A stretch of DNA of 53,722 bases from a virus. Position numbers and translations under genes: made by a program. The notes under the pieces were generated by a model, which had not been told where the DNA came from, searched no databases, and worked only from the letters and a program-made list of their open reading frames with translations. The stretch lies in the IMG/VR virus record IMGVR_UViG_3300020227_000034, positions 1-53,722 of that record. The stretch is one strand, 5' to 3'. Positions 1,208 to 46,589 of this stretch are shown here, in pieces. Every line of letters starts with the position of its first letter. The stretch's first letter is position 1.

Positions 1208-1218
1208 ATTGAGCCTCC

Positions 1219-4920: not shown

Positions 4921-4932
4921 CTTAGTACCTCC

Positions 4933-21967: not shown

Positions 21968-22168
21968 CTACCTTAAATGTTCTGGTACATCTTCTTCCGG
22001 GTAGATTGCATTAACAGGACATACTGCTTCGCATGCCCCACAATCTATGCAAATATCAGGGTCAATATGGAACATATCTTTACCTTCTGAGATACAATCT
22101 ACCGGACATACTTCGACACACTCTCCGGCCTTCTCCCCAGCGCAAGGTGATGTGATTACAAATGCCAT
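21968..22168 (-). CDS. 2x[4Fe-4S] ferredoxin
   Basis: 66 aa with two CxxCxxCxxxCP-type clusters (C..C..CVEVCP and CIDCGACEAVCP). RBS GAGAGGAG. Confidence 0.85.
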   Translation of the reverse strand: MAFVITSPCAGEKAGECVEVCPVDCISEGKDMFHIDPDICIDCGACEAVCPVNAIYPEEDVPEHLR

Positions 22169-29469: not shown

Positions 29470-29826
29470 TTACTTATTTATTTCGTATCCTGTTCGGTCA
29501 GATGTTCCATCTTGACGGGCATTGGTTTCACTAATCTTCTCCAGATACAACTGTTGTAATTCATCGGGTGTGATGCCAACCACAATAGTCATCTGGACTA
29601 AAAATAACCAAAGGTCAGTTACCTCACCTTTTAAAGCCGGTACATCAATTGGTTTGGGGTTCTTCCACCATTTCCAATTAGTCTCTCTACGGACCTCAGA
29701 GATTTCATCTTCCATAGCTACTAGAAGATTTTGTACCCATTCTTCTTGACTCCAATCAATCTCACGCTCGATTTGCATTCTAGCAAATATCTCTTTCTGG
29801 CGCTGAAACAGTAAATCCATATCCAT
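29470..29826 (-). CDS. All-alpha NTP pyrophosphohydrolase (dimeric dUTPase / MazG-like)
   Basis: 118 aa. LLVAMEDEISEVRRE...LKGEVTDLWLFLVQM has the E..E...E/D pattern of MazG/dimeric-dUTPase folds. Lies next to the RNR genes. Confidence 0.6.
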   Translation of the reverse strand: MDMDLLFQRQKEIFARMQIEREIDWSQEEWVQNLLVAMEDEISEVRRETNWKWWKNPKPIDVPALKGEVTDLWLFLVQMTIVVGITPDELQQLYLEKISETNARQDGTSDRTGYEINK

Positions 29827-29841
29827 TATTAACCACTCCTA

Positions 29842-30948
29842 TTATAAATCTAATTCTAGGTCTTCCGTGTCATCAAACTCATCATCTGTCTTCACATACT
29901 GGCGGGACTTCTGTTCAAAGAAATCAGTCTTACCAAGGTCAGTGTCCTCATACACTTTTATCCAAGACATGGGATTAGTATCCTGCTTATCAAAAGGTGC
30001 TGGGATGCGTAATTGTTTAGCTCTTACATTGGCCATGAAGCGAATATAACCAGATAGCTCGTCTACATTGATAGTATCGAACTTATGGCCGATTACGTAT
30101 TGGCTCCAGCTCATCTCGTATTGAGCCGCCTGCCGGATAATTTCCTCTCCGAGCTCGTATAGTTCAGGGATATCGAATTCAGGAAAGTCTAGTTTTACCG
30201 CAGCAAAGGTCTCTTTAAATAAACGTACATGCTGCTGCTCGTCACGGTTAATATAGTTAATCATAGTACTAGTTGCTACCATTCTACCAGAACGTGCTAA
30301 GTCATAGAAGAACGCAAATCCACTATAGAAGAATAGACCCTCTAGCATTACATCATATATAATAGAGATAAATAGATTAGCTACGGTCTTATCTTCTACG
30401 AATGGTTTGTACCCATTAATTAGAAAATCATTTCTCTCAATCAATACAGGGTCATGCTTCCAATATTCAAATACTTCATCTTGCCTATTCTTTTCTACTA
30501 GACTGGATAGAATATATGAGTATGAGTGGTTATGAATAACCTCTTGTTGGGCCAGAAGAACCATTAGAGCGTTAATACTAGAGTCTGTCAACTGGTCTGC
30601 TATTTGACTGGAGTAATCAGTTTGGACCGAATCTAGGAAGGCTAGTAACCCTATTATTTTTAAGAATGTGTCTTGCTCTTCTTCGTTCATTTTAGGGAAG
30701 TCTTTAATGTCCTGGTGCATATTAATTTCGAATGGTGTCCAGAAGTTACCTAACATCTTCTTGTATAAACCAAAAGCCCAAGGGAACCTAGTATCATCCC
30801 AGTTTACAACGTTAGAGCTATCCCCGTTAACTATTCTGGTAGATTTATTGGGAGCTGACTTATCCATTAGCTCCCTATTATCTAAAGGTATATGAGGTAC
30901 CTTATCTAAATATTGTTTTGTGAGTCTTTCTAGTTTTGCTTTATCCAT
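29842..30948 (-). CDS. nrdF: Ribonucleotide reductase class I beta subunit
   Basis: Di-iron ligand regions (LAFLDSVQ, QQEVIHNHSYSYIL, EGLFFYSGFAFF, RDEQQHV) and an acidic C-terminal tail. Start chosen at 30948 (MDKAKLERL) with RBS AAGGAG. Confidence 0.9.
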   Translation of the reverse strand: MDKAKLERLTKQYLDKVPHIPLDNRELMDKSAPNKSTRIVNGDSSNVVNWDDTRFPWAFGLYKKMLGNFWTPFEINMHQDIKDFPKMNEEEQDTFLKIIGLLAFLDSVQTDYSSQIADQLTDSSINALMVLLAQQEVIHNHSYSYILSSLVEKNRQDEVFEYWKHDPVLIERNDFLINGYKPFVEDKTVANLFISIIYDVMLEGLFFYSGFAFFYDLARSGRMVATSTMINYINRDEQQHVRLFKETFAAVKLDFPEFDIPELYELGEEIIRQAAQYEMSWSQYVIGHKFDTINVDELSGYIRFMANVRAKQLRIPAPFDKQDTNPMSWIKVYEDTDLGKTDFFEQKSRQYVKTDDEFDDTEDLELDL

Positions 30949-30962
30949 CCCGTAATCTCTCC

Positions 30963-35045: not shown

Positions 35046-35074
35046 ATTATAAAGCACTCGACCAAAAAAGGCAA
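35046..35074 (-). promoter_or_regulatory. Promoter TTGCCT-N17-TATAAT, overlapping the polymerase terminator
   Basis: Minus strand reads aggggTTGCCTtttttggtcgagtgcttTATAAT. Confidence 0.6.
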
Positions 35075-35089
35075 CCCCTAAAGGCTGCC
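35064..35089 (-). terminator. Intrinsic terminator after the DNA polymerase gene
   Basis: Minus RNA: GGCAGCC-uuuagg-GGUUGCC, then UUUUUU. The 3' arm and U-tract form the -35 of the next promoter. Confidence 0.7.
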
Positions 35090-35122
35090 AATTTTATTTT
35101 GTTATATATAATAAGGAACAAA

Positions 35123-37735
35123 CTAAACTGCCCAACCGATTTTATCTTTAACAAAAGTATCGAAGTCAGCTATGTCACCTTGTTTGTTTAGAATAATGTC
35201 TAACTTATTTTTGTCATTGACTTCTATTTCATACAAATTACCCCAGCGATAACCAATCTCAAAGTCAGCTACAAAAGGTACATCTGTATCCAACAGTATT
35301 TCACCTGCGGGTTCCATGATGTCTTTGAATATGGCGCGGACTTCTAACATTATTTGTTCGTCTTCTTTTACCTCGGCAATAATAGAATCGTGGACTGTGT
35401 TAACTAAGCGTACAACCTCTTCACCATACTTTTGATTAACTTCTTCTAAAGCATAATGTAACCTACATACGGACCACATAGTTAAATCAGATGCTGTAGC
35501 TTGTATCGGGAAGTTACCTGCTTCATTCTGTACAGCGTTTTTATTTGTTTCCGTAATTAATCCGAAGTGTCGTTTACGTCCTATTGGTGTCTCATAAGCC
35601 CTACCAAGTAACGGGTCTTTACGACGCTCTTGCATGTACTCGTATGTTAGTGGTTGTGGTGCGTACCAATCGGCGATTAGCTTCTTACCTTCTCTAACAG
35701 TTAAGTTATGCTCTGCTGCTAATGTATAGGCACTACGTCCATATGGAATACCGAAATTAACTGCTTTAGCTCGGACACGTTGCTCTTTGGTAAAGTCCTT
35801 ACCATACAACTGGATAGACATTTGGTCATGTAAGTCTGAGCCTGATTTGTATACATTCTGTAACCATGGGTCACCGGACTCTACAGCCAACGTCCGTAGC
35901 TCCGCCTGTGAGTAGTCGGCTTGGAATATAACGTACCCTTTGGACGCCACAAATATATTCTTGATTTTAGAGTTCCGCGGGATGTTATGGATATTTGGAC
36001 CTGCTGAACTTAGTCGACCAGTCTCGGTACCATGTAGCTTAAATGTAGAGTGTACCTTCTGTGTATCTTCTGTGATATGTTCCCAAATACCTTTAACATA
36101 GGTACTGTACATCTTTTTATCTTTGGCATAAGCTAGCTTAGTATCAATAAACTGTATAAGCGACACATCGCGTGATTTCTCTTTATATACTTTCAATGTA
36201 TCAGCATCAGTTGTAATCTTACCTTTCTTCTTAACTGGCTTGAGCTTCCACTTAGCGAACAGCATGTACCTGATATGCATATAACTATTCGGGTTAAACT
36301 CAGTTGGTAGCTTAGTCGGTCCTGGTCGTTTCTTGCCTTTACGTTTACCGGTACGCTCCCACTCTTTGAGTTTATGTTCATCAGCCCACACAGCATACTG
36401 CTTAGGATCAAAACCTTTCTTGTTAGCTAACTGTTTTAGCTCTTTAATATAATTCTCCAATGCTGGCTCGTATTCTTCCTGGAGCTTTTTGATGTAATTA
36501 ACATCCGTTGGGAACCCATTTAATTCCATATACATATAGGTGTTCGATGCATCCATTAATAAGTTGAATACCTTATCAATTTTACGTCCTTTGATACGCT
36601 CTTCCTCATAAGGAATTTTCAGTGCTCGGTAGACACGTAATGTCATATCACAGTCGACACCTTGGTATTTATATAGGATAGGTCGTGGTATGTCCGCAAA
36701 CGATTCTTTTACATACTGGTGCGCTTCGTGCTCCCAAGGCTCAGCATGACAGAACTCTACTGCGACTTGTTCCAAGTCATGTGTACCTTTGCGTTCATCT
36801 AAGACGTAATGCATCAGCATAGTATCGATATCAGTACGTGCTTTAATACCCAGCTGTGCTATATGGAACTTATTATCGAACTTACCGTTGTGGTAAATCC
36901 ATTTTATCTTGGGTGACTCGATGGTCTTCTTTAGTTCTTTTAGTACTGATTTGTTATACATCATCTCTTCACTGAGTACTACTGCGTGACCAATCTTCCA
37001 ACTAAACCCTTGACATAAGAAATAATCCTTCCGGAAATCAAATCCTCGGGTCTCAATATCAGATGCTACAATACGTTCTTTTGCCCGAAGCTGTTTAAGG
37101 AATTTGATAGATTGTATTGGATTGGACAATACATCTACCTTCGTTTCGGGTTTCTTGAATGGCTTTCCTTTTTCTCTGTTTAATAGTCTAACTGCTTTTT
37201 CTAGGTCTTTAGCAAACGTTTGAAATACATCTGTATTTCTTAGGACGTATCTAGGTTGGAATGTGGGTACTATATAAGCATCTAACCGTGCATCCCATTT
37301 CTGTTTACCTCGTTGGTTCATAATACCAGCACGAGTCATTCCCAATGATTTCAGAGCCCCGCTCCCCAATGGAACAATCACGTGAGGCCGCTTTATCTTT
37401 ATCTCTTCCATCAACCGCCCACTACAAGCTTTAATTCCACCTGCAGGGGGTTCTTGGCTCGTTTTACATGCGGTCGCATAAGTGTAATGGACCTTTGTAG
37501 TATGGTGGTCGAAACCTATGTCTTCCAGAACTGCATTTAGTGCTTGTTGCAAAAAGGAACCCCCGCGTCCAGCGAAGGCTTCTTTAGCAATAATTTCTGA
37601 CATGATAGGTGAGTCACCGATAACCATTATGTCACATTTTTCATCGTCAATCTTGGGTGCGAAGCAACGTCCTTTATTAAACATAACTTGTAGTGGGCAG
37701 TTTTCACAGTCAGCATGTTGTATTACGTCATGCAT
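35123..37735 (-). CDS. Family A DNA polymerase with 3'-5' exonuclease domain and an N-terminal family-4 UDG-like domain
   Basis: 870 aa. Pol motifs: Pol A DYSQAELR, KAVNFGIPYG, and motif C VHDSII. Exo motif SDIETRG. N-terminal CENCPL...VIGDSP...FAGRGGSFL...VPTFQPRY parallels the UDG family 4 motifs. Confidence 0.9.
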   Translation of the reverse strand: MHDVIQHADCENCPLQVMFNKGRCFAPKIDDEKCDIMVIGDSPIMSEIIAKEAFAGRGGSFLQQALNAVLEDIGFDHHTTKVHYTYATACKTSQEPPAGGIKACSGRLMEEIKIKRPHVIVPLGSGALKSLGMTRAGIMNQRGKQKWDARLDAYIVPTFQPRYVLRNTDVFQTFAKDLEKAVRLLNREKGKPFKKPETKVDVLSNPIQSIKFLKQLRAKERIVASDIETRGFDFRKDYFLCQGFSWKIGHAVVLSEEMMYNKSVLKELKKTIESPKIKWIYHNGKFDNKFHIAQLGIKARTDIDTMLMHYVLDERKGTHDLEQVAVEFCHAEPWEHEAHQYVKESFADIPRPILYKYQGVDCDMTLRVYRALKIPYEEERIKGRKIDKVFNLLMDASNTYMYMELNGFPTDVNYIKKLQEEYEPALENYIKELKQLANKKGFDPKQYAVWADEHKLKEWERTGKRKGKKRPGPTKLPTEFNPNSYMHIRYMLFAKWKLKPVKKKGKITTDADTLKVYKEKSRDVSLIQFIDTKLAYAKDKKMYSTYVKGIWEHITEDTQKVHSTFKLHGTETGRLSSAGPNIHNIPRNSKIKNIFVASKGYVIFQADYSQAELRTLAVESGDPWLQNVYKSGSDLHDQMSIQLYGKDFTKEQRVRAKAVNFGIPYGRSAYTLAAEHNLTVREGKKLIADWYAPQPLTYEYMQERRKDPLLGRAYETPIGRKRHFGLITETNKNAVQNEAGNFPIQATASDLTMWSVCRLHYALEEVNQKYGEEVVRLVNTVHDSIIAEVKEDEQIMLEVRAIFKDIMEPAGEILLDTDVPFVADFEIGYRWGNLYEIEVNDKNKLDIILNKQGDIADFDTFVKDKIGWAV
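35300..35311 (+). repeat. Oriented 12-mer, copy 8
   Basis: ttcacctgcggg. Confidence 0.8.
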
Positions 37736-38510
37736 TGTGTGTCCACCCCAATGTTACCCCTATATTATAGATAGCCATATCTAAGTGGGTCATACGTTCT
37801 GTTTTATGTTCTACTTTACCCTCAGGCCTATCTAACTTGTTAGCATGCCATTCAGGTAAGAATTTAATTCCATGTAGGGCCATCCAAGAAGGATATACTG
37901 AATCAATGCTCCGAATAAGACCATGGTAAGAATTATTAAAATCGGAATAGTCATTGGCTCCTAGTAAATGTATCTCCTTACCTTTCACTTGCGTAATGTA
38001 ATTCAGTATCCCGTTGTGGAATAACTTATTTAATAGTATGTGTCGTGAATTCTCGTCAACCAATTTAGCCCAAGCCTTCGGTATACCAAGAACATCAATT
38101 TCATCAATCTCTAGGTACTGCTTAATGCAGAAGCAAATTTCATTATAGTCCTTACCTTGGACTACGGCCATCTTCTTATACGGCTTAGCATTTTTATTCT
38201 TTAAGGCTTCGGTGACTAGGTCAATTGTTTTGTAGCTATCAAATAGTACGTCCGGAAGTATAACTTCATCAGCACGCACCATGCCCGCAGCACTTAGTAC
38301 TTGGTCAAAGTCCATCGCATTACCTAACTCAATAATACTATTGTCTAATACTACGTAACCACCATTGTCGGACAACTTTCTGTAGTACCTACGGTACATA
38401 TTGTCTTTAAGTACTAGGTGGGCCAGGCTCATCTGAAATTGAGATAAGCCAGCCTGAAATCTTAACTGGTCGTAATCGTTACCGTAAATAGGTATGGGTG
38501 CAAATTGCAT
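37728..38510 (-). CDS. dpdA: tRNA-guanine-transglycosylase-like protein (DpdA-like 7-deazaguanine DNA transglycosylase, putative)
   Basis: 260 aa with alternating beta/alpha TIM-barrel-like periodicity. VVLDNSIIELG parallels the TGT DSGGFQ Asp motif. IHLLGAND...LIRSIDSVYPSWMALHG parallels TGT LMGVG...GVDMFDCV.PTR.A..G. It sits next to the que genes. Confidence 0.55.
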   Translation of the reverse strand: MQFAPIPIYGNDYDQLRFQAGLSQFQMSLAHLVLKDNMYRRYYRKLSDNGGYVVLDNSIIELGNAMDFDQVLSAAGMVRADEVILPDVLFDSYKTIDLVTEALKNKNAKPYKKMAVVQGKDYNEICFCIKQYLEIDEIDVLGIPKAWAKLVDENSRHILLNKLFHNGILNYITQVKGKEIHLLGANDYSDFNNSYHGLIRSIDSVYPSWMALHGIKFLPEWHANKLDRPEGKVEHKTERMTHLDMAIYNIGVTLGWTHNA

Positions 38511-39091
38511 TATTCTATTCCCCCTTTGGAGTGGTCTATAATAAATGTCTTTGCTTCTCCATGCATTTCTTCTTTAGTAAGTATGTCTGAGTTGAGTTTT
38601 AGAATTGGAAACTGCTTCTCTAGATTCTTGATTATGTCGTTATAGCCTGCTAGTAAATCACGAATCATTTCTGGTTTAATTAACTTCTCGCCTTCCTCTT
38701 TGAATCGCCTAGTAATGGTCTCTTCGCTAGCATGACAATAAATAAAGATAGTACCTTGATTAACTAATTCAGGGTAGACCCAAGTGTAATAGGCTTGCTC
38801 TATCTTCTCAGGCATCGGTGACCCAGACATAACAGGATGATAGACTAAGTCATCCGGGAAATGGAATCTATCCAAGATGGTAGGGAAGTGTTTATTTGCC
38901 CGTACAAAATCTAATGCTCTACCAAAAGCCATTTCGGGAGTTTTTTGATTATTACCTTTGTAATATTCTACGGCAACAAAAGAATCTAATAAGGAGTCTA
39001 TCAAAGTTGATTTGCCTGTCTTGTCACAACCAATTACAATAATATTCTTTGTCCTTAAATCTAGTAGACTAGCGTTTACGTAACTCATCAT
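38510..39091 (-). CDS. P-loop (d)NMP kinase-like protein (thymidylate-kinase fold)
   Basis: Walker A GCDKTGKST and a DRF..D..VY segment resembling the TMPK DR(Y/F) motif. Start chosen at 39091 (MMSYVN...) with RBS GGGAGGAG. Confidence 0.55.
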   Translation of the reverse strand: MMSYVNASLLDLRTKNIIVIGCDKTGKSTLIDSLLDSFVAVEYYKGNNQKTPEMAFGRALDFVRANKHFPTILDRFHFPDDLVYHPVMSGSPMPEKIEQAYYTWVYPELVNQGTIFIYCHASEETITRRFKEEGEKLIKPEMIRDLLAGYNDIIKNLEKQFPILKLNSDILTKEEMHGEAKTFIIDHSKGGIE

Positions 39092-39764
39092 GTTTCTCCT
39101 CCCACCATTTATCAAAATCGATATTTTCGGTACCAATTGCCTTAGCTAGATAGATAGCCACGTCCACTAATTCTTTCTTCAGGTTATCTTGGTCCCCAGC
39201 ATCCAGTGCCGATAGCTCGTACACTTCTTCAGCAATCTCTCCAGCCTCTCCATTTAAAGCTAATGCTAGGTATGCCATATTCTGATGCTCTTTAGGTATT
39301 ACAGCTGTGGTTGGATTATCAATTAGGAAACCACTTAGCCCATCAATGTTAGCTGTAATCTTGTCCAAACGTTCGTGTGACATCCCGTCCCGGATTAACT
39401 TCTTGACGTCATCCGCAATCTCTCCAGCTATCTTATTTATTACTAAGGCAAATACAACCGTACCGTGTAATGATTCAGGGATGTCCATTGTTGTCTTATA
39501 ACCCTTCTCTTTATCAAATGCCAGGACTTCATTTACCATACGTTCAAAACGACCCTCGGAAAGCATATCATTCATTTCTTTAAGTCGTACCGTAGCTTTA
39601 TATACACCTGCGGAGTTACGGTTAACGAATCCTTTTCGAAATAGATTTGTTAACCTTTCTTCTGAAGCATTCGGTACTTGTTGTAGGTACTCTTCCTTTG
39701 TAAACTCACCCAACATTGCAACCTGTCTAATTTCTATTTTATGTTCATTTACGTCGAAGCTCAT
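39069..39764 (-). CDS. Tandem MazG-like nucleoside triphosphate pyrophosphohydrolase
   Basis: 231 aa with two EExxE-type segments (INKIAGEIADDVKKL and LNGEAGEIAEEVYEL ... ELVDVAIYL). Confidence 0.6.
   Translation of the reverse strand: MSFDVNEHKIEIRQVAMLGEFTKEEYLQQVPNASEERLTNLFRKGFVNRNSAGVYKATVRLKEMNDMLSEGRFERMVNEVLAFDKEKGYKTTMDIPESLHGTVVFALVINKIAGEIADDVKKLIRDGMSHERLDKITANIDGLSGFLIDNPTTAVIPKEHQNMAYLALALNGEAGEIAEEVYELSALDAGDQDNLKKELVDVAIYLAKAIGTENIDFDKWWEEKHDELRKR
39602..39613 (+). repeat. Oriented 12-mer, copy 9
   Basis: tacacctgcgga. Confidence 0.8.
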
Positions 39765-39993
39765 TCTTGATTTCCTCCTCTGACTTTGTTGAGCTAATTA
39801 TGTTTTCGTATGCAGTGTGTAAGAAGATCTTACCTCCGACTGCTGTATAGTCATGCCCACCTTTACCAACAAAAGCACAGTAGGCTTTGTCAATCTTAAC
39901 TAGTTCTTCAACTACACGGTCCCATGCTTCTTGAAAGGAAATCTCTTTTTGACTATTAATTTTGTCCTGCTTTTTACGTTGACGTTTGTTCAT
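39745..39993 (-). CDS. Hypothetical protein
   Basis: 82 aa with RBS GGGAGGG. Downstream of promoter 40142..40170. Confidence 0.55.
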   Translation of the reverse strand: MNKRQRKKQDKINSQKEISFQEAWDRVVEELVKIDKAYCAFVGKGGHDYTAVGGKIFLHTAYENIISSTKSEEEIKNELRRK

Positions 39994-40141
39994 TACGAAC
40001 CCTCCCAGATTAGATAGAAAGCGAGGTTACCCCCGCCTACTATATTAGAATTTATCCCATTCATTTTCAAATTCTCTTACTCTAGCCCTAAACATTTGTT
40101 GTCCGTAGCTTCACTATCGCTCACCTCCCATCTCTATAAAT

Positions 40142-40170
40142 ATTATACTACAAGATAGGCGAACTATCAA
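40142..40170 (-). promoter_or_regulatory. Promoter TTGATA-N17-TATAAT
   Basis: Minus strand reads agccTTGATAgttcgcctatcttgtagTATAAT, directly after the folE stop. Confidence 0.6.
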
Positions 40171-40172
40171 GG

Positions 40173-40805
40173 CTACCTCTTCATTAAATCTAGTATTTCC
40201 ATCCGGGCCGACATATTCTCTCTGAACAACCCTCTCATGGTAGAAGTAGTAGTAGTAGCATCTTTCTTTTTAATACCACGTCCACACATACAATAATGCG
40301 CAGCTTCTATTACGACTGCAACAGCCTTCGGTTGAAGGACCTCATCTATTGCATCTGCAATCTGTTGTGTTAAGCGTTCCTGTACCTGGAAGCGCTGTGC
40401 GTATCCATCAACTACTCTTGCAAATTTAGACAATCCCGCAACAGACTTACTCGGGATGTATGCAATATGCGCCTTACCATAAAATGGTGCGAAGTGGTGC
40501 TCACATAGGCTGTTAAAGTCTATGTCTTTAATTAATACAATGTCATCATGCTCGACTTCGAATTCTTTTGTTAAGTGTTGTTTTGGGTCCTCACGATATC
40601 CTTTGGTATATTCCAGGTAAGCCTTAACGACACGGAAAGGAGTTTCCTCCAAACCGTCTCGTGTAGGGTCATCACCACATACCTCAATTACCTTAGAAAT
40701 ACTATCCATCGCTTCTTCTAAGTCCATCTCTTGTTTGAAATCTAAGAAGGACGTATCTAATACTTTTTCTAATTTCCCACGTTGCTCATCATTCATTCTG
40801 TACAT
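40173..40805 (-). CDS. folE: GTP cyclohydrolase I
   Basis: 210 aa with the diagnostic CEHHFAPF zinc/active-site motif and C-terminal HYCMCGRG. Confidence 0.9.
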
Positions 40806-40810
40806 GTTAT

Positions 40811-41566
40811 CTACACCTTTCTCTTATTAGCCCATACAAGGGTATGAAGTTGTGGTAATGGTTTGATATCATTAGCTTCTGGGTCATCTATAACTTTATT
40901 CCAAAGCCAGTCTAATTTAGTAAGAAGACGTCCGGAGATATCGCCTTCTTCGTGTGCATCCTCGTTTCCGACTGAAACAAAGAATTCCGCCTGCGGGTAT
41001 CTGTTGTGTACGTACTTGGCGTGCTCGAAGTCTTCGTCATCGAATACAACGACCTTCAGTGTATAATTAGTATCTGCTTCATCCAATTTTTCAATGATGT
41101 CATCCAGTCGCTGCCAGTTAGTTTTCATTAATGAACTCGGTGGCTTAGGACTGATTGTTAGATCATCGATATCACGGAACCAATCCTTCCAGAATGACCC
41201 TTGTGTTTCTAATCCTACCTTTATACCTGACTCGTGACACATATTGATTAGGTCCTGCATTGGCTGTGCTATCAATGCTGGGTTACCTCCAGAAATAGTT
41301 ACGTGGTCAAAGTTTAATTTACCTGACTCTTTATCTGTACCTAATTCCAGTAAGGTCTCAAATACATCTTCAGCTGATTTCAGTTGTGCCTTCTCTTCCC
41401 CATTCCAAGTGAATGCTGAGTCACACCATGCACAACTGTAATCACAACCACCTGTCCTAACGAACATTGTCTTACGTCCGATGACCATTCCTTCACCTTG
41501 AATAGTCGGTCCAAATATTTCCATAATAGGCATACGTTTTGGTTTACGTGCTTTAGTCTCTGCCAT
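40811..41566 (-). CDS. queE: 7-carboxy-7-deazaguanine synthase (radical SAM)
   Basis: 251 aa. Radical-SAM cluster motif [10 protein letters not shown], an N-terminal QGEG segment and the GGNP motif. Confidence 0.85.
40986..40997 (+). repeat. Oriented 12-mer, copy 10
   Basis: tccgcctgcggg. Confidence 0.8.
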
Positions 41567-41694
41567 GTTTGTCCTCCTCTACTTTGTCTAACCAGTTTTG
41601 TAACTTGGTGCATTGTTTATTCTCTCGGACACCGAATCTATGCAAATATTCAGGTACCCCACCAAGTGCTTTGAAATGGAGTACCTCTTTAATA

Positions 41695-42123
41695 CTAATT
41701 ATGCTTAGGACGATATACTACATATGACGTAGGCGTCTCGCGGAGAATAACTTGTAAACATTCGGCACCAAGCCCTTCACTATCTAGGTAGTGTTGGATA
41801 GTAATGTAAATCCATTCGGCTACATTTTCTGTTGATGGAATAGTACCTCCATCGGTAATATCAAATTCATGATGGTCATTCAATACTGTGTGGTCATATT
41901 TTTTATGGACTAATTTTTTAAGTGATTGAAAGTTAACTAAGAAACCATCTTCTCCAACTTCATCACCTACAATGGTAATATTCACAAAGTAAGTATGTCC
42001 ATGTAATTGTTGACACTTACCCGCACTTGGATGTGGTACAAGATGTGCTGCAGCGAAGTGCATGTCCTTATTTAATTCGAATCGTTTGTTATGAGGTGTT
42101 GTTGGATAAAACTGTTGTAACAT
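41695..42123 (-). CDS. queD: 6-carboxy-5,6,7,8-tetrahydropterin synthase
   Basis: 142 aa of the PTPS fold, with AAH..P......C..LHGHTY zinc-ligand signature. Confidence 0.85.
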   Translation of the reverse strand: MLQQFYPTTPHNKRFELNKDMHFAAAHLVPHPSAGKCQQLHGHTYFVNITIVGDEVGEDGFLVNFQSLKKLVHKKYDHTVLNDHHEFDITDGGTIPSTENVAEWIYITIQHYLDSEGLGAECLQVILRETPTSYVVYRPKHN

Positions 42124-42341
42124 TACTCTTCCTCCTCTAATAGTGTATATTCAAATCCAGCTAACAGTTCAGGTGAATTACCGACAATGAAATTAGAATC
42201 ATAAATCATTTTACCGACTACATCGTCGCCCTCTTGTACTGCTGGGATGTACCTACAAAATACTGCAAACTCATCATCGGCCACAATACAACCGAAGATG
42301 CCTTCATCTACATTTATCATGGTACCCTTTTCAAAGACCAT
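42123..42341 (-). CDS. Hypothetical protein embedded in the que operon
   Basis: 72 aa. Start and stop each share a base with the neighbouring genes (tight coupling). Confidence 0.55.
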   Translation of the reverse strand: MVFEKGTMINVDEGIFGCIVADDEFAVFCRYIPAVQEGDDVVGKMIYDSNFIVGNSPELLAGFEYTLLEEEE

Positions 42342-42727
42342 TATACATTCTCCTTTATTTGTAGACCTTTATTTCTGGTCCTAACTAATAATGGGCTAGC
42401 TTGTTTAAGGAAGCTCTCCCAAAGCAAGTTATGGTTCCTACCGTTTACTTTCTTGCTGGCGAACACTGGTCGTGTCCATTCTTGTTGTATGCAACGATAA
42501 GAGTAGTTAATGTACCTATAAGCATCGTTCTTGAGGTTCTCGAAAGCTACTCCATGGTCAATCTTTCTCCAACGCCTATTCGACAAGTAGACATCTTCTA
42601 AAAACTCGGCAGGTGATAAACCATCTAAACCTCCAGGATGCTCGTCTGATAGTACTGCATAGAGGTGGGGGAAGATTTCCCCATCAGCTTCTATACGTTC
42701 ATATAACCAAATCTCTTTACGTCCCAT
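42341..42727 (-). CDS. Hypothetical protein embedded in the que operon
   Basis: 128 aa, 15 nt downstream of queC. I recognise no family. Confidence 0.55.
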   Translation of the reverse strand: MGRKEIWLYERIEADGEIFPHLYAVLSDEHPGGLDGLSPAEFLEDVYLSNRRWRKIDHGVAFENLKNDAYRYINYSYRCIQQEWTRPVFASKKVNGRNHNLLWESFLKQASPLLVRTRNKGLQIKENV

Positions 42728-42742
42728 TATTGTATTCGCCCC

Positions 42743-43399
42743 TTATTTTTTGTATTTGATAGGGTCTTCATAACCCGCTTCTTCGAATGCTGCTAATCTT
42801 AGTTGACACGTAGGACAAGTACCACATGAAGGTACAGTTCCTCTATAACATGAATGAGTTAATTCTAGTGGTGCACCTATTCTCATGGCTTCTTTAACTA
42901 CATCAGATTTATGTTTCTTTAAGAATGGTGCCCTTATTTCCACATTACCAGCTGTACCATGTTTCAATGCTGCAAACATATATATGAAGTAAACTGCTGT
43001 AGTATCTGGATAACCTCCGTGGTCCTCTGCATGTGCACCATAATAAATGTAGTCAGCATTAATACTGTCTGCTACACCTGCGGCTATGGATAAGAAGATG
43101 GAGTTCCTCGCTGGTACGTATGTTGCGCCGACCGAACCTTTATCTTGGTCGTCTTTTATGTCTTCACCGTGCTGTAATAATGAAGAGTTGAAATTTGCGA
43201 ATGTTGACGATAGGTCAAATTCTGTATATGAATCTAACTCCAACACTTTAGCTATCTTCCTAGCACTCTCCATTTCTACGTCATGTTTTTGCCCGTAATA
43301 CATGTTTAAGGCATGTACCTCATCGTTCTCTCTTTTTGCTATAGCTGCGCAGGTTGTGGAATCCATTCCACCAGATAATAATACTAGTGCCTTACTCAT
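42743..43399 (-). CDS. queC: 7-cyano-7-deazaguanine (preQ0) synthase
   Basis: The PP-loop motif LLSGGMDST and a C-terminal CxxCxxC zinc cluster (CGTCPTCQLR). Start chosen at 43399 with RBS GAGGAGG. Confidence 0.9.
   Translation of the reverse strand: MSKALVLLSGGMDSTTCAAIAKRENDEVHALNMYYGQKHDVEMESARKIAKVLELDSYTEFDLSSTFANFNSSLLQHGEDIKDDQDKGSVGATYVPARNSIFLSIAAGVADSINADYIYYGAHAEDHGGYPDTTAVYFIYMFAALKHGTAGNVEIRAPFLKKHKSDVVKEAMRIGAPLELTHSCYRGTVPSCGTCPTCQLRLAAFEEAGYEDPIKYKK
43073..43084 (+). repeat. Oriented 12-mer, copy 11
   Basis: tacacctgcggc. Confidence 0.8.
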
Positions 43400-43621
43400 A
43401 ATGTTCCTCCTCATAATTTGGTTGGGGTTTATAGTCACTATTCAACACAGTTTCTGTTGAGCGGCCTAACTTTTTGTAAGGTCTACGTTTTAATAAATTC
43501 AAATCAGCTAAACTTGCATAGTATTCTTCAGCCAGCGGCTAAATCTGCTATCTCTCCCATTACTATCACTCCTTTTATTTAAGGAGATAAGAAACTGTTA
43601 ATCTCTTATCTCTTTAAATAT

Positions 43622-43650
43622 ATTATAACATATGCGAGCTCTAGAGTCAA
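43622..43650 (-). promoter_or_regulatory. Promoter TTGACT-N17-TATAAT for the que operon
   Basis: Minus strand reads aagggTTGACTctagagctcgcatatgtTATAAT. The -35 overlaps the primase-helicase stop codon. Confidence 0.7.
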
Positions 43651-46589
43651 CCCTTATTCAATATATTCTGACGTTCTTTTTCGGTCATCTTTTTAAACTG
43701 TTGATACTGCTCGTGCCATTTATGAGTGGTCCTATAAGAGTTACCAGCCGTACCATCATAGATCAAGTCCATGTCTACCAGTGCACTGATAATATCACGT
43801 GCCTCTTCGGTATCCATACCCAACCCTTCTTCCAAGTTTTTAGATGTCCAGTTCTTAGCTTTACGACCGTCAATATACTTGGACTCTTTTTGGTGGGTAA
43901 CAAACCACAGCATGATTTCTTCTTTCTGTTTGTCGGTCACTCTATGACGTGATTGTTCTTCTTGTGCTAGGCCCCAATAATCGAAGGCTGGTTTCTTAAA
44001 TAACTCGTCAACAAACTCGGCAATGAACTCTACATGTTCTGGTTTGACTATTACCTTTTCCATCTCTTCATCGGTACTAAATAATCTAGCAGCACATGCA
44101 ACTGACATCCTTGCTAGTTTGATACGTAACGAGTTTTGCTCAAAAATAGGTATACTACATTCGTACCTATCACCTAGGATACTCGCCTGCCGGAGTATGG
44201 TCTTTACTGCTTCGGGTTCGAAATAGACTTTGTCGTTGTCCTGAGATAGACGTCCTCTAGCATTCCTACTCCAGGTCCACAAAATCAACTGTTGACACAA
44301 TTCGCTGGTATATGTTTGAGGCTCTCTTGGTTTGTCATCCAGGACTTGGTTGATTACTTCTTCAGGGACCTCATCCTTACTGACACCCATAGCGAAATCA
44401 AATCTAGCAATGTCCTCTGCTTGGTTGACTAGGTCTTTAACTGAACGGACACCGTAATCGAAATCCTTCAGCATCTTGCCACCCCTAGGGTTGGACATCC
44501 ATATGGCTCTTGTTCTGGCATATGCTTGACCCTGTTTGGCTTTATTGATTTCTACTACCCCACGTGAACGCATACCTGATAGCTCACCAAACATATCTTT
44601 GTCTAATCCGGATGCCTCATCAATGATTAATAGCTTGCGGTCATTCATTGGGAATTTACCCCATGTAATCATCCACTGACCACCATTCTTCGTTTCTACT
44701 GTACCAGTCAAACCAGTGACGCGTGTACCTTCACCTTCGAACATATCACCTTGTTGGTAGTACCGTGCTAAGTACTCGGCCGTCTCTGACTTACCAGTAC
44801 GTGGGTCACCAATAACTAGCATATCAATCCAACCCCTGTGTAGTAGCTTTCTATTAAAGTGGAAACGTAAAACAGAATGGTAAGCTAAGTCGTAAGCTAT
44901 AATCAAGTCACGTCTACCCCATATTTGAGTCCATAACTCTAGGTCAGCAGCAATCTCATACATTTTATCTTTAACCGATTGACCTTCTGCAGGTTGAAAT
45001 ACTTTGAGGCGTTCAAGCTCTTCCTTAGTTGGGTTGAACTTATCAAAGCTTTCTTGCACTGCTGTAGCTTCTAATATTAGATATGCAGCCGTACCATCAT
45101 TAGGACTAGTTGTTCTTAATGCATTAAATATATAGCTTCGGTTTGACTTAGCTGACATACCTTTTCTAGGATAAACATAATAAGCTGTCTGCGCATCCAA
45201 CTCGTCTTCTTTTATTTCATTACTGAACTTGGATATGTCCGGTGAAATATATAAGGTCTCGACGTTGTAAATCTCCTTCTCTTCTATCTTAGGTTTAGGA
45301 CACTTGGCAGGTACACCAATAGTTTGTTTAATTCGGTTCTCCCGTTGTTCATCATTAGCACCTATATAAGTTAAGACATCTCTAGTCCGGCCGAAATTGA
45401 AGTCGTACCCTTCCTTGATTTGTTCTTGTGTTAAAGACGCTAGTATACAACCCTGGCACTGTTTGTTTTCTGGGTCGTAAGATTTACAGGATACATTAAC
45501 TTGCTTAGGAGAAGAATATGGTTGAGCCTCCCTACCTTGAACTCTAGCTTCTATTCGTACACCAGTGTTATTATACCCTGGGTCATTAGTAGCTTCGGTC
45601 AAAGTAGTCTCTGTAAATTCTAGGTCATCCAAATTCTCTTGTTCCTGCTCTTCTAATTTACGTTCCACTGCAGGTACAAACTTCTTGCCTTTTTTGAGTA
45701 CCTCCCGTTGGAAGTCTGAATACTCTTTACCTCCCTTCATTATGTAATCAGTAAAGTCCCAACCCTCTTTTGGTATGGAGGTGACATAAATGTCTTTGGC
45801 ATACTCTTTTAAAGCATTACCAACCCGGTTTGCACCATCACGACCTGCGTTATCTGAGTCATAACAAATAAAGACTATCTTGTTTGTAAACCAATGACCT
45901 ACTTCCTTCGGCCATTGACCTGCTCCACCTGTTTGTGTTACGGCCGGGATGTTATGTTGTCTTGCTAATACAGTATCAGGTTCGCCCTCAAATATTACAA
46001 CCCAACCTGAATTCCAAAAAGTATTATCTAGAGGCCATATCATTGATTTAGTATAGGCACCCTTCATATTGGTGAATTTAGCCTTCTTAGCACCCATCTT
46101 GTATCTTCTTATATTAATTACATCGCCTCTAGCTGAATACACAGGGAATGTATATCTGTTGTTAGCCGATTCATATCCGATTTGAAACTCTGATATGGAT
46201 TCTAGGTTAATTCCCCGTTTGTCAATAAATGTAGCTAATGCTTCTTCACTGTTAAGTAGCTCTTGATGTAAATCATTTACAATTGTCTTATCTATTGGTA
46301 TTCCCAACTGTCCAGTGTTTTCATACTTAGCCTTAAACGATAGGGCATCCTTCAATGGGATATCAAACCACTCAGTCATCCAATCAGCAATGTGCCCCCC
46401 TCCGTTGACACCGGCATCACATGCTTGACATTTCCATCGTCCTGTATATAAGTTAATGTACATGGAAGGATTTGAATCATTATGAAAAGGGCATTTAATG
46501 GGCAGCTCTCCGTCATCAGGCATATTAGTTATATCAATGAATCGGGAGTAAAAATCTCTGTAGTCAATATTCTCTTCCGACATACCCAT
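43647..46589 (-). CDS. DNA primase (CHC2 zinc finger + TOPRIM) fused to an MCM-like AAA+ helicase
   Basis: 980 aa. CPFHNDSNPSMYINLYTGRWKCQAC is a CHC2 finger. EGEPD...YDSDNAGRDG is TOPRIM. GDPRTGKSE (Walker A), IIDEASGLDKDM (Walker B), WMSNPRGG (sensor 1) and ARFDF (Arg finger) parallel the MCM motifs GDPGxxKSQ, IDEFDKM, AAANP and SRFDL. Confidence 0.8.
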   Translation of the reverse strand: MGMSEENIDYRDFYSRFIDITNMPDDGELPIKCPFHNDSNPSMYINLYTGRWKCQACDAGVNGGGHIADWMTEWFDIPLKDALSFKAKYENTGQLGIPIDKTIVNDLHQELLNSEEALATFIDKRGINLESISEFQIGYESANNRYTFPVYSARGDVINIRRYKMGAKKAKFTNMKGAYTKSMIWPLDNTFWNSGWVVIFEGEPDTVLARQHNIPAVTQTGGAGQWPKEVGHWFTNKIVFICYDSDNAGRDGANRVGNALKEYAKDIYVTSIPKEGWDFTDYIMKGGKEYSDFQREVLKKGKKFVPAVERKLEEQEQENLDDLEFTETTLTEATNDPGYNNTGVRIEARVQGREAQPYSSPKQVNVSCKSYDPENKQCQGCILASLTQEQIKEGYDFNFGRTRDVLTYIGANDEQRENRIKQTIGVPAKCPKPKIEEKEIYNVETLYISPDISKFSNEIKEDELDAQTAYYVYPRKGMSAKSNRSYIFNALRTTSPNDGTAAYLILEATAVQESFDKFNPTKEELERLKVFQPAEGQSVKDKMYEIAADLELWTQIWGRRDLIIAYDLAYHSVLRFHFNRKLLHRGWIDMLVIGDPRTGKSETAEYLARYYQQGDMFEGEGTRVTGLTGTVETKNGGQWMITWGKFPMNDRKLLIIDEASGLDKDMFGELSGMRSRGVVEINKAKQGQAYARTRAIWMSNPRGGKMLKDFDYGVRSVKDLVNQAEDIARFDFAMGVSKDEVPEEVINQVLDDKPREPQTYTSELCQQLILWTWSRNARGRLSQDNDKVYFEPEAVKTILRQASILGDRYECSIPIFEQNSLRIKLARMSVACAARLFSTDEEMEKVIVKPEHVEFIAEFVDELFKKPAFDYWGLAQEEQSRHRVTDKQKEEIMLWFVTHQKESKYIDGRKAKNWTSKNLEEGLGMDTEEARDIISALVDMDLIYDGTAGNSYRTTHKWHEQYQQFKKMTEKERQNILNKG

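Follow-up and report, generated by a model that had tools for sequence, protein, structure and literature searches.

A DpdA3-type operon of an apparent Bacillales phage and a candidate nucleotide-pool route to 7-deazaguanine DNA

Introduction

The closest described systems are those of phages encoding a transglycosylase of the DpdA3 subfamily. All three DpdA3 phages analysed showed 100% replacement, whereas other DpdA types reach 30% or less, the modification by DpdA1 and DpdA2 being partial and motif-dependent (PMC10516641). The same study views DpdA3 as a post-replicative exchange enzyme acting on DNA, detected ADG nucleoside in the cytoplasm of CP220-infected cells, and reports that reconstitution of DpdA3 in E. 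coli failed in a plasmid assay in which other DpdA types are active (PMC10516641). For Campylobacter phages, a modified-dGTP route had been proposed earlier (PMC6884629). CP220 and immuto have folE, queD and queE in a cluster, which may or may not include queC. DpdA3 has a TMPK-like kinase and a nucleotide phosphohydrolase as neighbours, with a phage polymerase not far away; the order is HD/P-loop gp055, DpdA3 gp056 and kinase gp057 in CP220, and MazG-like gp208, DpdA3 and kinase gp203 in immuto.

The DpdA1 and DpdA2 phages (9g, CAjan, Dp-1/MS1, Rosebush, phi47:1) and the bacterial DpdABC systems employ the same preQ0 genes and a base-exchange enzyme of the TGT superfamily, and DpdA1/DpdA2 genes are likewise located in the replication module. 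Some of these systems pair with ParB-like or DpdB-type partners instead of a kinase or MazG. Bacterial DpdB is an ATPase that powers DpdA.

To our knowledge, TGT-fold base-exchange chemistry occurs in no pre-replicative pathway. Such pathways include hm-dC synthesis in T4 (gp56 dCTPase, gp42 dCMP hydroxymethylase, gp1 dNMP kinase) and the SPO1-type replacement by hm-dU. The Z-genome pathway of S-2L and PhiVC8 relies on MazZ, PurZ and DatZ (PMC12783734). All three place a triad beside the phage polymerase, namely a pyrophosphohydrolase for a canonical dNTP, a dNMP-remodelling enzyme and a kinase, and all three replace one base completely.

Results

Operon organization

The window, which is the whole 53,722-nt stretch analysed (IMG/VR record IMGVR_UViG_3300020227_000034), contains a module of the already described DpdA3 kind. 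The sequence-only reading had proposed a unidirectional block of ten ORFs, and the ORF check recovered 10/10 of them on the minus strand with the same coordinates (Table 1). The block is one operon, with a promoter-like site at its start (43650) and a terminator-like site at its finish (35070); its genes form a single tightly coupled unit with the phage polymerase at its end. The translational coupling that had been noted is real: TAATG overlaps occur at ORF128/ORF72, ORF72/queD and kinase/DpdA3, and longer overlaps at ORF82/MazG (20 nt), MazG/kinase (23 nt) and DpdA3/PolA (8 nt), the last placing the start of polA within the end of the transglycosylase gene. Upstream of queC, the promoter-like site occupies the gap that follows the gene for the primase-helicase; such sites are no more numerous across the region than chance would give, and this one is suggestive only through its position. 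The internal site falls in the 179-nt gap preceding ORF82. The queC start is most likely the ATG at 43399, preceded by AGGAGG, rather than the GTG at 43438, and the kinase starts at the ATG at 39091, with GGAGG upstream, not at the TTG at 39136.

Table 1. Features of the DpdA3-type operon in the window
Feature	Coordinates	Strand	Basis or remark
Promoter-like site, 5' of queC	43622..43650	-	TTGACT, 17-nt spacer, TG-extended TATAAT; 11/12 consensus matches
queC, 7-cyano-7-deazaguanine (preQ0) synthase	42743..43399	-	maximal ORF reaches 43438
ORF128, conserved orphan protein	42341..42727	-	always queC–ORF128–queD in Bacillales-phage DpdA3 subclade
ORF72, acidic small ORF	42123..42341	-	coupled translationally at both ends
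queD, 6-carboxytetrahydropterin synthase	41695..42123	-	TIGR03367, PF01242
queE, radical-SAM 7-carboxy-7-deazaguanine synthase, B. subtilis type	40811..41566	-	TIGR03365, phrog_2076
folE, GTP cyclohydrolase I	40173..40805	-	PF01227, TIGR00063
Internal promoter-like site	40142..40170	-	TTGATA, 17-nt spacer, TATAAT; 11/12; consensus match only
ORF82, small basic protein	39745..39993	-	N-terminal NKRxRKKQ; positional orthologues in sister phages
Tandem MazG-like nucleoside-triphosphate pyrophosphohydrolase, 231 aa	39069..39764	-	PF03819, phrog_229, repeat alignment
dNK/TMPK-family P-loop kinase	38510..39091	-	phrog_761; orthologues adjacent to or fused with DpdA3
DpdA3-subfamily guanine/7-deazaguanine transglycosylase, 260 aa	37728..38510	-	homology, invariant residues, model
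UDG + 3'-5' exonuclease + family A DNA polymerase, one fused protein	35123..37735	-	domain analysis
Terminator-like hairpin + T-run	35070..35089	-	immediately 3' of polA

The preQ0 pathway and the predicted base

The four proteins FolE, QueD, QueE and QueC genuinely belong to the GTP-to-preQ0 pathway, as first proposed from their motifs: in the profile search, each exceeds its NCBIfam equivalog cut-off. QueC (PF06508, E 6.8e-62; TIGR00364, 180.8 bits against a cut-off of 150.3) carries the SGGMDS, YGQKHDVE, VPARN and C-x7-CxxCxxC motifs, with YPDC replaced by YPDT. QueD (PF01242, E 5.5e-30; TIGR03367, 93.6 against 89.25) has the C-x3-HGH motif and lacks the DpdL-type LxxxHRHxF. QueE (TIGR03365, 327.4 bits against 206.1) contains CxxxCxxC and matches phrog_2076, and FolE scores E 1.1e-71 with PF01227 and 231.9 against 181.6 with TIGR00063. 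Because six-frame searches found no homologue of QueF, Gat-QueC, DpdL, DpdN or Vut_1, preQ0 stays the default predicted base, in line with the dPreQ0 product suggested originally. We know of no report of complete dPreQ0 replacement.

The transglycosylase and its relatives

The 260-aa protein has no Pfam match. It is nevertheless a transglycosylase of the DpdA3 type that retains the acidic residues invariant in the family: it shares 29% identity with the immuto_2-6A DpdA (E 6e-16) and 25% with the CP220 protein, and the family profile matches the bacterial DpdA of known structure (PDB 7ui4, E 3.4e-6). D56 N57, P86 D87, G119, H181-LLG and D203 are invariant, and the AF2 model (pLDDT 70.5) retrieves TGT as the top Foldseek match (E 1.8e-4, TM ∼0.5). 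The TGT-like barrel of the sequence-only reading belongs to a published subfamily (PMC10516641), and the assignment as a 7-deazaguanine DNA-modification module is supported. The DpdA3 HMM detects no DpdA1 or DpdA2 protein.

The missing Pfam match and the medium confidence of the model would suit a protein that is no transglycosylase at all, and Hutinet 2019 raised a tRNA role for phages without a recognised DpdA, in which case the genes would be auxiliary metabolic genes boosting host queuosine-tRNA precursors. We consider either version very improbable, given the clear homology to 7ui4 and to the DpdA3 of phages with experimentally modified DNA, the invariance of the putative catalytic residues, and the position of the operon inside the replication module, coupled to polA. 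Moreover, the substrate of bacterial Tgt is preQ1, yet no queF was found.

Compared with CP220 and immuto, the window is a siphovirus-sized genome of 53.7 kb, seemingly from a Bacillales phage; it encodes every step to preQ0 but no QueF, DpdL or DpdN, and has ORF128 and a tandem MazG in addition. It is most closely related to Weizmannia phage Youna2 (OM293949) and the Bacillus phages BSP7, BSP19, BSTP5, BSTP8, BSTP10 and BSTP12, whose orthologous modules share the order primase, queC, ORF128, queD, queE, folE, small ORF, kinase, DpdA3, polA. This synteny is conserved in Youna2, BSP7 and the further sister phage L006. DpdA3 of the window is 37-42% identical to its orthologues in these relatives, the kinase 39-47% and ORF128 52-55%, and a nucleotide search detected no similarity to these phages at the nucleotide level. 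Unlike the window, these phages have neither the MazG gene nor ORF72, and their polA is split, its first part (∼670-680 aa against 870 aa in the window) apparently missing the UDG domain, judging by length; BSP7 has an HNH endonuclease inside the module. In their annotations the module genes are labelled hypothetical, and the literature search found no DNA-modification data for them.

MazG, kinase and their association with DpdA3

The C-terminal half of the MazG-like protein matches phrog_229 (E 2.6e-8) and PF03819 (19.7 bits, under the cut-off of 22). The protein has a unique N-terminal extension of ∼70 aa and an internal repeat whose copies are 42% identical across 33 aa. The tandem architecture read from the translation holds because each repeat aligns with MazG proteins that have a single domain in related loci; of the two units, the first is degenerate and the C-terminal one carries the acidic motifs. 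This unit shares 37-42% identity with the MazG of L114, L089 and L090, which lies in the same FolE-MazG-Kin-DpdA3-PolA order, and MazG is ancestral in the wider branch, though missing from Youna2, BSP7 and L006. The kinase, correctly recognised as TMPK-fold, matches phrog_761 ‘thymidylate kinase’ (E 2.8e-17) with a Pfam score under the gathering cut-off; among solved structures its best relative is SPbeta YorR, with deoxynucleoside and thymidylate kinases ranking next. Its nearest relative outside DpdA3 phages (MW202455) sits in a kinase/NTP-PPase/ThyX/pyrimidine-hydroxymethylase/PolA cluster, a classical pre-replicative layout.

Genomic neighborhood comparison shows the kinase adjacent to or fused with DpdA3 in 54 of 102 DpdA3 loci and in 0 of 68 DpdA1/2 loci (within 2.5 kb), counts to be read with the phylogenetic non-independence of the loci in mind. 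By lineage, it is adjacent or fused in 10/25 (50% identity) or 21/45 (70%), and a kinase or MazG is present in 29/45 DpdA3 lineages against 1/34 control (DpdA1/2) lineages; at 50% clustering, the control collapses to 4 lineages and lineage-level statistics are therefore non-significant. MazG is rare within 2.5 kb of DpdA1/2 (2/68 loci). In unbiased neighbour clustering, the kinase and MazG have the widest lineage spread after the Que genes and PolA, the latter ranking second among all DpdA3 neighbours. MazG-like genes recur directly upstream: the order (QueC-QueD-QueE-FolE)-MazG-Kin-DpdA3-PolA reappears in the divergent lineages L089, L090, L114 and L100, and MazG-DpdA3-PolA in L091, L092, L096, L099, L112, L120 and L134. 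Since gene order is found again in independent phages and metagenomic contigs, the arrangement is not due to chance.

Fusions strengthen this association. Full-length kinase::DpdA3 proteins (408-464 aa) make up 68 of the 120 best database relatives (at least 68 fusion protein clusters), and those of L134 (434 aa) and L111 (477 aa) share only 24% identity. The P-loop Lys, the DR motif and a further Arg, by analogy with TMPK a LID arginine, are ≥97% conserved in the kinase part, as are the DN, PD, QG, HLLG and RxxD motifs in the DpdA3 part, and fusion contigs carry a Pfam-grade MazG directly upstream. We found neither the fusions nor the DpdA3-specific kinase/MazG association described in the searchable literature.

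Proposed route of base replacement

We see an even chance that this operon replaces the guanine of the phage genome wholesale by a 7-deazaguanine, predicted to be preQ0, through the nucleotide pool. This route is favoured because kinase adjacency is DpdA3-specific, MazG recurs upstream and fusions are widespread; nucleotide-pool editing by MazG and the kinase, already suspected, is thereby the best-supported part of the sequence-only reading. The tandem MazG would hydrolyse dGTP to dGMP, removing the canonical substrate and supplying the acceptor on which DpdA3 would swap guanine for preQ0, with a deoxynucleoside as the alternative acceptor. The kinase would then phosphorylate the product, host NDP kinase would complete dPreQ0TP, and the UDG-fused PolA would incorporate it to near-complete substitution. 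This route also agrees with the complete replacement reported for DpdA3 phages, the failed reconstitution in E. coli and the cytoplasmic ADG nucleoside of CP220 infection (PMC10516641), with the earlier modified-dGTP proposal (PMC6884629), and with the pre-replicative setting of the kinase relative in MW202455. Family A polymerases accept 7-deaza-dGTP analogues as good substrates. A cyanophage MazG is described, in work cited by PMC8265664, as preferring dGTP and dCTP.

Like the T4, SPO1 and Z-genome pathways, the module would set a pyrophosphohydrolase, a remodelling enzyme and a kinase beside the phage polymerase and is predicted to replace one base completely; it would differ in that the remodelling enzyme is a TGT-fold base exchanger using a separately made free base. 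We know of no TGT-superfamily enzyme acting on a mononucleotide, the characterised members all using tRNA or DNA. If true, the base swap would precede replication, unlike the current belief of a swap on finished DNA. Points we counted against exchange on free nucleotides are the ∼10 of 25 lineages with neither kinase nor MazG within 2.5 kb, the MazG-less sister phages, and the window kinase and MazG scores below the Pfam gathering cut-offs.

The interpretation in print (PMC10516641), which we hold possible but doubtful, is that DpdA3 exchanges guanine for preQ0 directly in freshly made phage DNA, possibly while travelling with the polymerase, the ‘kinase’ being an ATPase partner, as DpdB is, or a dNMP supplier, and MazG serving dNTP housekeeping. 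The homology of DpdA3 to DpdA and TGT, its stop codon overlapping the start of polA, the adjoining of DpdA1 genes to polymerase or clamp genes, the ParB-like partners of some, and the non-universal kinase and MazG all agree with it. It does not account for the fusion, in at least 68 clusters, of DpdA3 to a dNK/TMPK-type kinase that keeps its DR motif intact and its arginines conserved, for the frequent MazG directly upstream, or for DpdA1/2 loci having no adjoining kinase and hardly any MazG. Motif-free, 100% replacement is also atypical for post-replicative DpdA enzymes, and DpdA3 was inactive in the E. coli plasmid assay.

The same data would accommodate a dual route, in which substitution comes mainly from a modified dNTP pool and DpdA3 ‘polishes’ the G still left in DNA, or in which the kinase and MazG salvage deazaguanine nucleotides from degraded DNA. 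It fits the original wording of pool editing ‘rather than, or in addition to’ base exchange, and pool control is already joined with on-DNA base proofreading in this phage type, as its UDG-fused polymerase shows (preprint 10.1101/2025.03.26.645540). Being less parsimonious, and with no observation specifically requiring both activities, it appears unlikely.

Orphan and small ORFs

The two ORFs wedged between queC and queD, for which a tailoring role had been suggested, fare differently. ORF128 is conserved at 45-58% identity, in the Bacillales-phage subclade only; homology and fold searches returned no homologue and no fold match (AF2 model pLDDT 72.5), and it may assist the preQ0 branch as an accessory factor confined to the subclade. 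ORF72 matches nothing in any locus compared and is probably dispensable. The stand-alone ferredoxin gene (21968..22168) is real, but sister phages have no ferredoxin, which places it outside the conserved module. ORF82, which has no family match in profile searches, shares 40% identity with an 84-aa ORF of BSP7, and weaker counterparts occur in Youna2 and L006.

Operon organization and preQ0 biosynthesis

The module is a co-directional block in which queC, ORF128, ORF72, queD, queE and folE are followed by ORF82, a 231-residue MazG-like protein, a P-loop kinase, a 260-residue protein and an 870-residue family A polymerase (the small ORFs are named by their length in residues). The ORF128/ORF72, ORF72/queD and kinase/260-residue gene junctions are TAATG stop/start overlaps, while ORF82/MazG, MazG/kinase and the 260-residue gene/polA overlap by 20, 23 and 8 nt, respectively. 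The most plausible starts of queC (ATG 43399) and of the kinase gene (ATG 39091) each follow a good Shine-Dalgarno site. The promoter- and terminator-like sites of the block do no more than match the consensus, and in total they are no more numerous than expected by chance. No preQ1 riboswitch or other Rfam family was detected in the queC leader or in the whole window; the leader contains a 12-bp hairpin and, preceded by AAGGAG, a uORF of 10 codons.

FolE, QueD, QueE and QueC, the members of the preQ0 pathway, are all assigned unambiguously from their sequences. Each exceeds its NCBIfam equivalog cut-off (QueC, 180.8 versus 150.3; QueD, 93.6 versus 89.25; QueE, 327.4 versus 206.1; FolE, 231.9 versus 181.6), and Pfam is concordant for all four. 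Canonical QueC is marked by SGGxDS, YxQxHxxE, VPxRN, YPDC and a zinc motif (PMC13329287). Four signature motifs are found in the window QueC, with a zinc motif of the form C-x7-CxxCxxC; the YPDC motif, part of the substrate pocket, reads YPDT (context GGYPDTT) in this phage alone, which is a caveat to the preQ0 prediction, as an effect on the conversion of amide to nitrile would give ADG instead. The cysteine is kept in Weizmannia phage Youna2, Bacillus phage BSP7 and the Logan contig L006, as well as in 77 of 98 DpdA3-linked QueC proteins. Because no homologue of QueF, DpdL, DpdN, a Gat domain, a phosphoribosyltransferase or YhhQ/Vut_1 is found anywhere in the window, the base in this phage is predicted to stay preQ0. 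The sequence-only reading had described a unidirectional 7-deazaguanine block with these four genes and a 260-residue gene coupled to the family A polymerase, and had taken dPreQ0 as the default product since queF and an amidotransferase-type QueC were absent; ORF layout, family scores and the missing QueF and Gat homologues bear it out on each point.

Coordinates of the features discussed (window unless another sequence is named)
Feature	Sequence	Coordinates	Strand	Remarks
Ferredoxin	Window	21968-22168	minus	66 residues, stand-alone 4Fe-4S; PF00037, E 3.5e-13
Ribonucleotide reductase genes and NTP-PPase	Window	29470-33200	minus	Class I, alpha and beta, then all-alpha NTP-PPase
Co-directional block	Window	35070-43650	minus	
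Terminator-like hairpin	Window	35089-35070	minus	After polA; consensus match
Polymerase	Window	35123-37735	minus	UDG superfamily domain (PF03167, 56 bits), 3'-5' exonuclease and PolA, three-part fusion
Second promoter-like site	Window	40170-40142	minus	Gap ahead of ORF82; consensus match
queC	Window	42743-43399	minus	
queC leader	Window	43399-43622	minus	∼215 nt, between promoter-like site and queC
uORF	Window	43559-43527		In queC leader
Leader hairpin	Window	∼43606-43570		In queC leader
Strong promoter-like site	Window	43650-43622	minus	TTGACT-17-TGtTATAAT, 5' of queC; consensus match
Primase-helicase	Window	43647-46589	minus	980 residues, directly upstream of module
kinase::DpdA3 fusion	L134	7548-8852		434-477 residues
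kinase::DpdA3 fusion	L111	1019-2452		434-477 residues
kinase::DpdA3 fusion	L255	9001-10308		434-477 residues
kinase::DpdA3 fusion	L256	9001-10311		434-477 residues
Putative preQ0 transporter	L006	8880-9416		Vut_1/YhhQ-type, between queD and queE
HNH homing endonuclease	L002 (BSP7)	6875-7375		Between queE and folE
Kinase-containing cluster	L177 (MW202455)	276-8355		

The 260-residue protein as a DpdA3 transglycosylase

The 260-residue protein has no Pfam, NCBIfam or named PHROG match, and is assigned by its relatives to the DpdA3 subfamily of DpdA/TGT transglycosylases, a family already known. In tblastn searches of phage genomes it aligns with Youna2 (42% identity), with Bacillus phages BSP7, BSP19 and BSTP (36-38%), with immuto_2-6A gp206 (E 6e-16) and with CP220 gp056 (E 3e-4; 25% identity to a CP220-group Campylobacter phage protein). 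The DpdA3 subfamily, established in 2023, counts the immuto_2-6A and CP220 proteins among its reference members (PMC10516641). An alignment of 14 DpdA3 sequences contains 16 invariant columns, and D56-N57, E61, P86-D87, G119, H181-L-L-G and D203 are invariant or nearly so. The corresponding profile matches bacterial DpdA (PDB 7ui4, E 3.4e-6) with QG, HLLG and the SIDS aspartate aligned, the last of these corresponding to D203. D56, D87 and D203, invariant in the 14 sequences and 100% conserved in 68 proteins that carry kinase and DpdA3 on one polypeptide, are by analogy the putative catalytic aspartates of base exchange. Three arginines, R156, R200 and R228, are likewise invariant and particular to DpdA3.

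Structurally, the AF2 model (pLDDT 70.5, pTM 0.72) displays an alternating strand-helix pattern, and its top Foldseek matches are tRNA-guanine transglycosylases (E 1.8e-4), at TM scores of only 0.45-0.52. An iterated DpdA3 HMM recovered 163 loci and none of the proteins of the other phage subfamilies, DpdA1/2. DpdA3 is tied to 7-deazaguanine genes by their common operon in the window and by QueE, FolE, QueC and QueD as top neighbors across lineages. Isoelectric point and net charge were rejected as discriminators between DpdA3 and the DNA-acting DpdA1/2, since all are acidic.

MazG and kinase partners

The MazG-like protein scores 19.7 bits against Pfam PF03819, under the gathering score of 22, and matches phrog_229 (E 2.6e-8). 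Its C-terminal unit shares 37-42% identity with the MazG proteins of L114, L089 and L090, three loci with the order FolE-MazG-Kin-DpdA3-PolA, and the tandem arrangement is confirmed because the N-proximal repeat also aligns to these MazG domains. The presence of related MazG proteins in that gene order indicates that the gene is ancestral in this branch and was then lost in Youna2, BSP7 and L006. Its positional equivalents in two fusion loci, L255 and L256, are Pfam-grade PF03819 matches.

The kinase falls under the Pfam dNK cut-off (21.1 versus 27). Its profile matches solved kinases (YorR, 2.6e-12; dNK 8puu, 1e-4; TMPK 9wd2, 7e-4; dGK, 5e-3), and G21, G26, K27, R75, D80, Y84 and R144 are invariant. 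The P-loop, DR motif and conserved arginine identify it, at the level of sequence, as a nucleoside or nucleotide kinase of the dNK/TMPK P-loop family. A TGT-like barrel, a tandem MazG-like protein and a TMPK-fold P-loop kinase had all been proposed before any database search, and the DpdA and kinase profiles, Foldseek matches and internal MazG repeat uphold them; the initial observation is confirmed and its interpretation largely supported.

In the phage database, the kinase has relatives only in Bacillales phages that bear DpdA3. The best match beyond these, at 27% identity, lies in MW202455, within a cluster encoding a kinase, an NTP-PPase, ThyX, a pyrimidine hydroxymethylase, a thymidylate-synthase homologue, a ligase and PolA. 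The cluster has the layout that textbooks give for a pre-replicative pathway, and is probably a separate pyrimidine hypermodification module. Two published DpdA3 phages have the same neighbors as the window: CP220 encodes an HD/P-loop protein, DpdA3 and a kinase, and immuto_2-6A a MazG-like hydrolase, DpdA3, DpdN and a kinase. In phiST, a MazG/dUTPase-like gene lies in the same inter-module stretch as DpdA3, two genes off (PMC10516641). The window also encodes a second NTP pyrophosphohydrolase, a 118-residue dimeric-dUTPase-like NTP-PPase (PF08761, E 2.1e-11) after the ribonucleotide reductase genes; its equivalent in BSP7 is annotated as dUTPase.

Coupling and fusion across DpdA3 lineages

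DpdA3 is evolutionarily coupled to a small-molecule-type kinase and to MazG; this coupling is specific to the subfamily and includes fusion. A further 157 DpdA3 loci from IMG/VR were analyzed with HMMs of the window's proteins, and same-strand genes within 3 kb of DpdA3 were clustered without bias. The neighbors spread most widely across lineages are QueE, PolA, FolE, QueC and QueD, with the kinase and MazG next. A kinase lies within 2.5 kb of DpdA, or is fused to it, in 54 of 102 DpdA3 loci (10 of 25 lineages at 50% identity, 21 of 45 at 70%), compared with none of 68 DpdA1/2 control loci gathered alike from CAjan, Flasso, MS1 and phi47:1; the survey loci are not phylogenetically independent, and clustering at 50% leaves the control with only four lineages, so that the test is not significant at that level. 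Counting either gene, kinase or MazG, gives 29 of 45 DpdA3 lineages versus 1 of 34 in the control. The kinase counts use a clean 179-position kinase HMM, and a fusion-containing 286-position HMM gave an unchanged result. PolA adjacency was rejected as DpdA3-specific evidence, since CAjan DpdA1 adjoins a polymerase too.

The fused proteins of L134 (434 residues) and L111 (477 residues) share only 24% identity. The best 120 matches to the L134 protein include 68 full-length fusions (408-464 residues, 34-99% identity), many of them on phage-sized contigs; fusions of this kind make up at least 68 protein clusters. Conservation across the 68 is at least 97% for the P-loop lysine, the DR motif and one more conserved arginine of the kinase half, and likewise for the DN, PD, QG, HLLG and RxxD motifs of the DpdA3 half. 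Both fusion contigs examined carry a Pfam-grade MazG directly upstream and a short PTPS, QueE and FolE downstream; one adjoins a PolIII alpha gene and the other a PolA gene.

In fusion loci, a polymerase gene and a small ORF are followed by MazG, the fusion gene, a short PTPS (119-122 residues, possibly DpdL-like), QueE and FolE, with no QueC. For the fusion phages, the prediction is dDG or dCDG instead of dPreQ0. The UDG-PolA architecture of the window polymerase is the second most lineage-wide DpdA3 neighbor in the metagenomic loci; a 2025 preprint reports UDG-fused ‘SP15-like’ PolA from phages whose thymidine is hypermodified and whose dNTP pools are altered (10.1101/2025.03.26.645540).

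A candidate nucleotide-level route to complete substitution

Genomes containing 7-deazaguanine are resistant to most restriction enzymes and to some CRISPR nucleases. Outside the phage, the DpdA3 enzyme has so far failed to work, which leaves room for more than one account of how DpdA3 phages reach 100% substitution. The three DpdA3 phages analyzed are 100% substituted, compared with 30% or less for other DpdA types; DpdA3 failed in E. coli reconstitution, and infected cells contained ADG nucleoside in their cytoplasm (PMC10516641).

We infer that the MazG-kinase-DpdA3 coupling reflects consecutive metabolic steps. There is about an even chance that DpdA3 is, rather than a DNA transglycosylase, a deoxynucleotide/deoxynucleoside guanine:7-deazaguanine exchanger which, together with a MazG directed at dGTP and a kinase of its own, fused to it in many phages, provides a 7-deaza-dGTP pool for the polymerase. 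MazG would convert dGTP to dGMP, and DpdA3 would put preQ0 in place of guanine, on either the deoxynucleotide or the deoxynucleoside; the kinase would rephosphorylate the exchanged product, host NDK would complete the triphosphate, and the phage polymerase would incorporate it; in the Bacillales subclade, ORF128 would be an additional step. Genes of dNTPase, kinase and polymerase type are all present and linked in the window, and the kinase::DpdA3 fusions and the MazG-Kin-DpdA3-Pol order are indirect evidence that DpdA3 may act on a free (deoxy)nucleotide. The proposed steps match the T4 hm-dC and S-2L Z-genome pathways in their logic. Such a route would explain the complete substitution, the failed reconstitution and the cytoplasmic nucleoside. 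A modified-dGTP route was put forward for Campylobacter phages before DpdA3 was recognized (PMC6884629).

About 40% of DpdA3 lineages are without adjacent kinase and MazG genes, which fits the main rival account, the one in print, in which DNA is the substrate of DpdA3 and the P-loop protein is an ATPase partner like DpdB or a housekeeping enzyme. Precedent also speaks for this possible but somewhat less likely reading, as to our knowledge no TGT-fold enzyme uses a mononucleotide. It would leave the widespread kinase::DpdA3 fusion to be explained, for example by ATP-driven DNA base exchange like that of DpdA/DpdB, and a route mixing DNA-level with nucleotide-level exchange appears improbable.

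If true, exchange at the nucleotide level would add a chemically distinct fourth to the pre-replicative routes by which a genome becomes fully substituted, and would call for a new definition of the substrates that the TGT superfamily accepts. It would also supply a set of some eight enzymes that, with a tolerant polymerase, could make DNA fully substituted with 7-deaza-G, in vivo or in vitro. The pathway is concrete and falsifiable (MazG, then DpdA3, kinase and PolA), and the conserved MazG-kinase-DpdA3-polymerase unit shown by the window and its relatives makes the mechanism of complete substitution directly testable. Tractable cultured relatives infect Bacillus subtilis (BSP7, BSTP) and W. 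coagulans (Youna2). No paper on a kinase::DpdA3 fusion or a nucleotide-level DpdA was found in the open-access literature; the 2023 DpdA3 paper does not mention a kinase (PMC10516641), a December 2025 paper still cites 7-deazaguanine as the example of nucleic-acid-level modification, and the module is not taken up in the papers on Youna2 and BSP7.

A Bacillales-phage subclade with an orphan gene

The window system belongs to the known DpdA3 kind, and represents an unstudied Bacillales-phage clade with a predicted preQ0 base and one true orphan gene. The module block has no megablast match among 50,697 phage records, so all its relationships rest on proteins. Youna2, BSP7 and L006 (53.4 kb) share the gene order primase, queC, ORF128, queD, queE, folE, a small ORF, kinase, DpdA3 and polA. 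Among these three and the window, ORF128 is 45-58% identical, more conserved than DpdA3, and located between queC and queD in every case.

Only five 90%-identity clusters of ORF128 exist among 5.8 billion proteins, and when 1.84 billion representatives were searched exhaustively by HMM, the sole hits besides the protein itself were two artefacts of tandem repeats. It has no Pfam, PHROGs or NCBIfam match, with none for any member in Pfam at E up to 10, and no match to PDB by sequence profile at E up to 10. With its model, Foldseek reached a best E of 0.84 against PDB and returned the BSP7 orthologue alone from BFVD. ORF128 is missing from every other DpdA3 lineage, including those nearest in module architecture. 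Conservation, fixed position and the lack of relatives outside the subclade mark it, on sequence criteria, as a real, selected gene specific to these Bacillales phages. The two ORFs between queC and queD, singled out together by the sequence-only reading, part company here: ORF128 is conserved, but ORF72 has no counterpart in any locus. ORF82 has weak positional orthologues with a common basic N-terminus.

That reading had also pointed to a stand-alone ferredoxin, which is genuine by its family match, but a link to QueE is unsupported: the gene is missing from the sister phages BSP7 and Youna2, and the ferredoxin was rejected as a conserved QueE partner on that ground. It is flanked by two genes of ∼520 residues, and its phage relatives are found in Ralstonia, Acinetobacter, Microcystis and gut phages.

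The module tolerates insertions in sister phages, namely the putative preQ0 transporter gene of L006 and the homing endonuclease gene of BSP7; in the window, the queD-queE gap (128 nt) is empty. At 53,722 bp, the window is in the size class of Youna2 (52.9 kb) and BSP7 (55.5 kb) and is probably a whole contig; the longest contig on record for its own DpdA3 and ORF128 proteins has the same length. GC skew is negative throughout, and the minus strand carries almost all of the sizeable ORFs. The primase-helicase combines a DnaG-type zinc ribbon and a Toprim primase with an MCM-type P-loop helicase domain (PF00493, E 1.5e-12), and most DpdA3 loci encode a 900-1040-residue protein at the same position.
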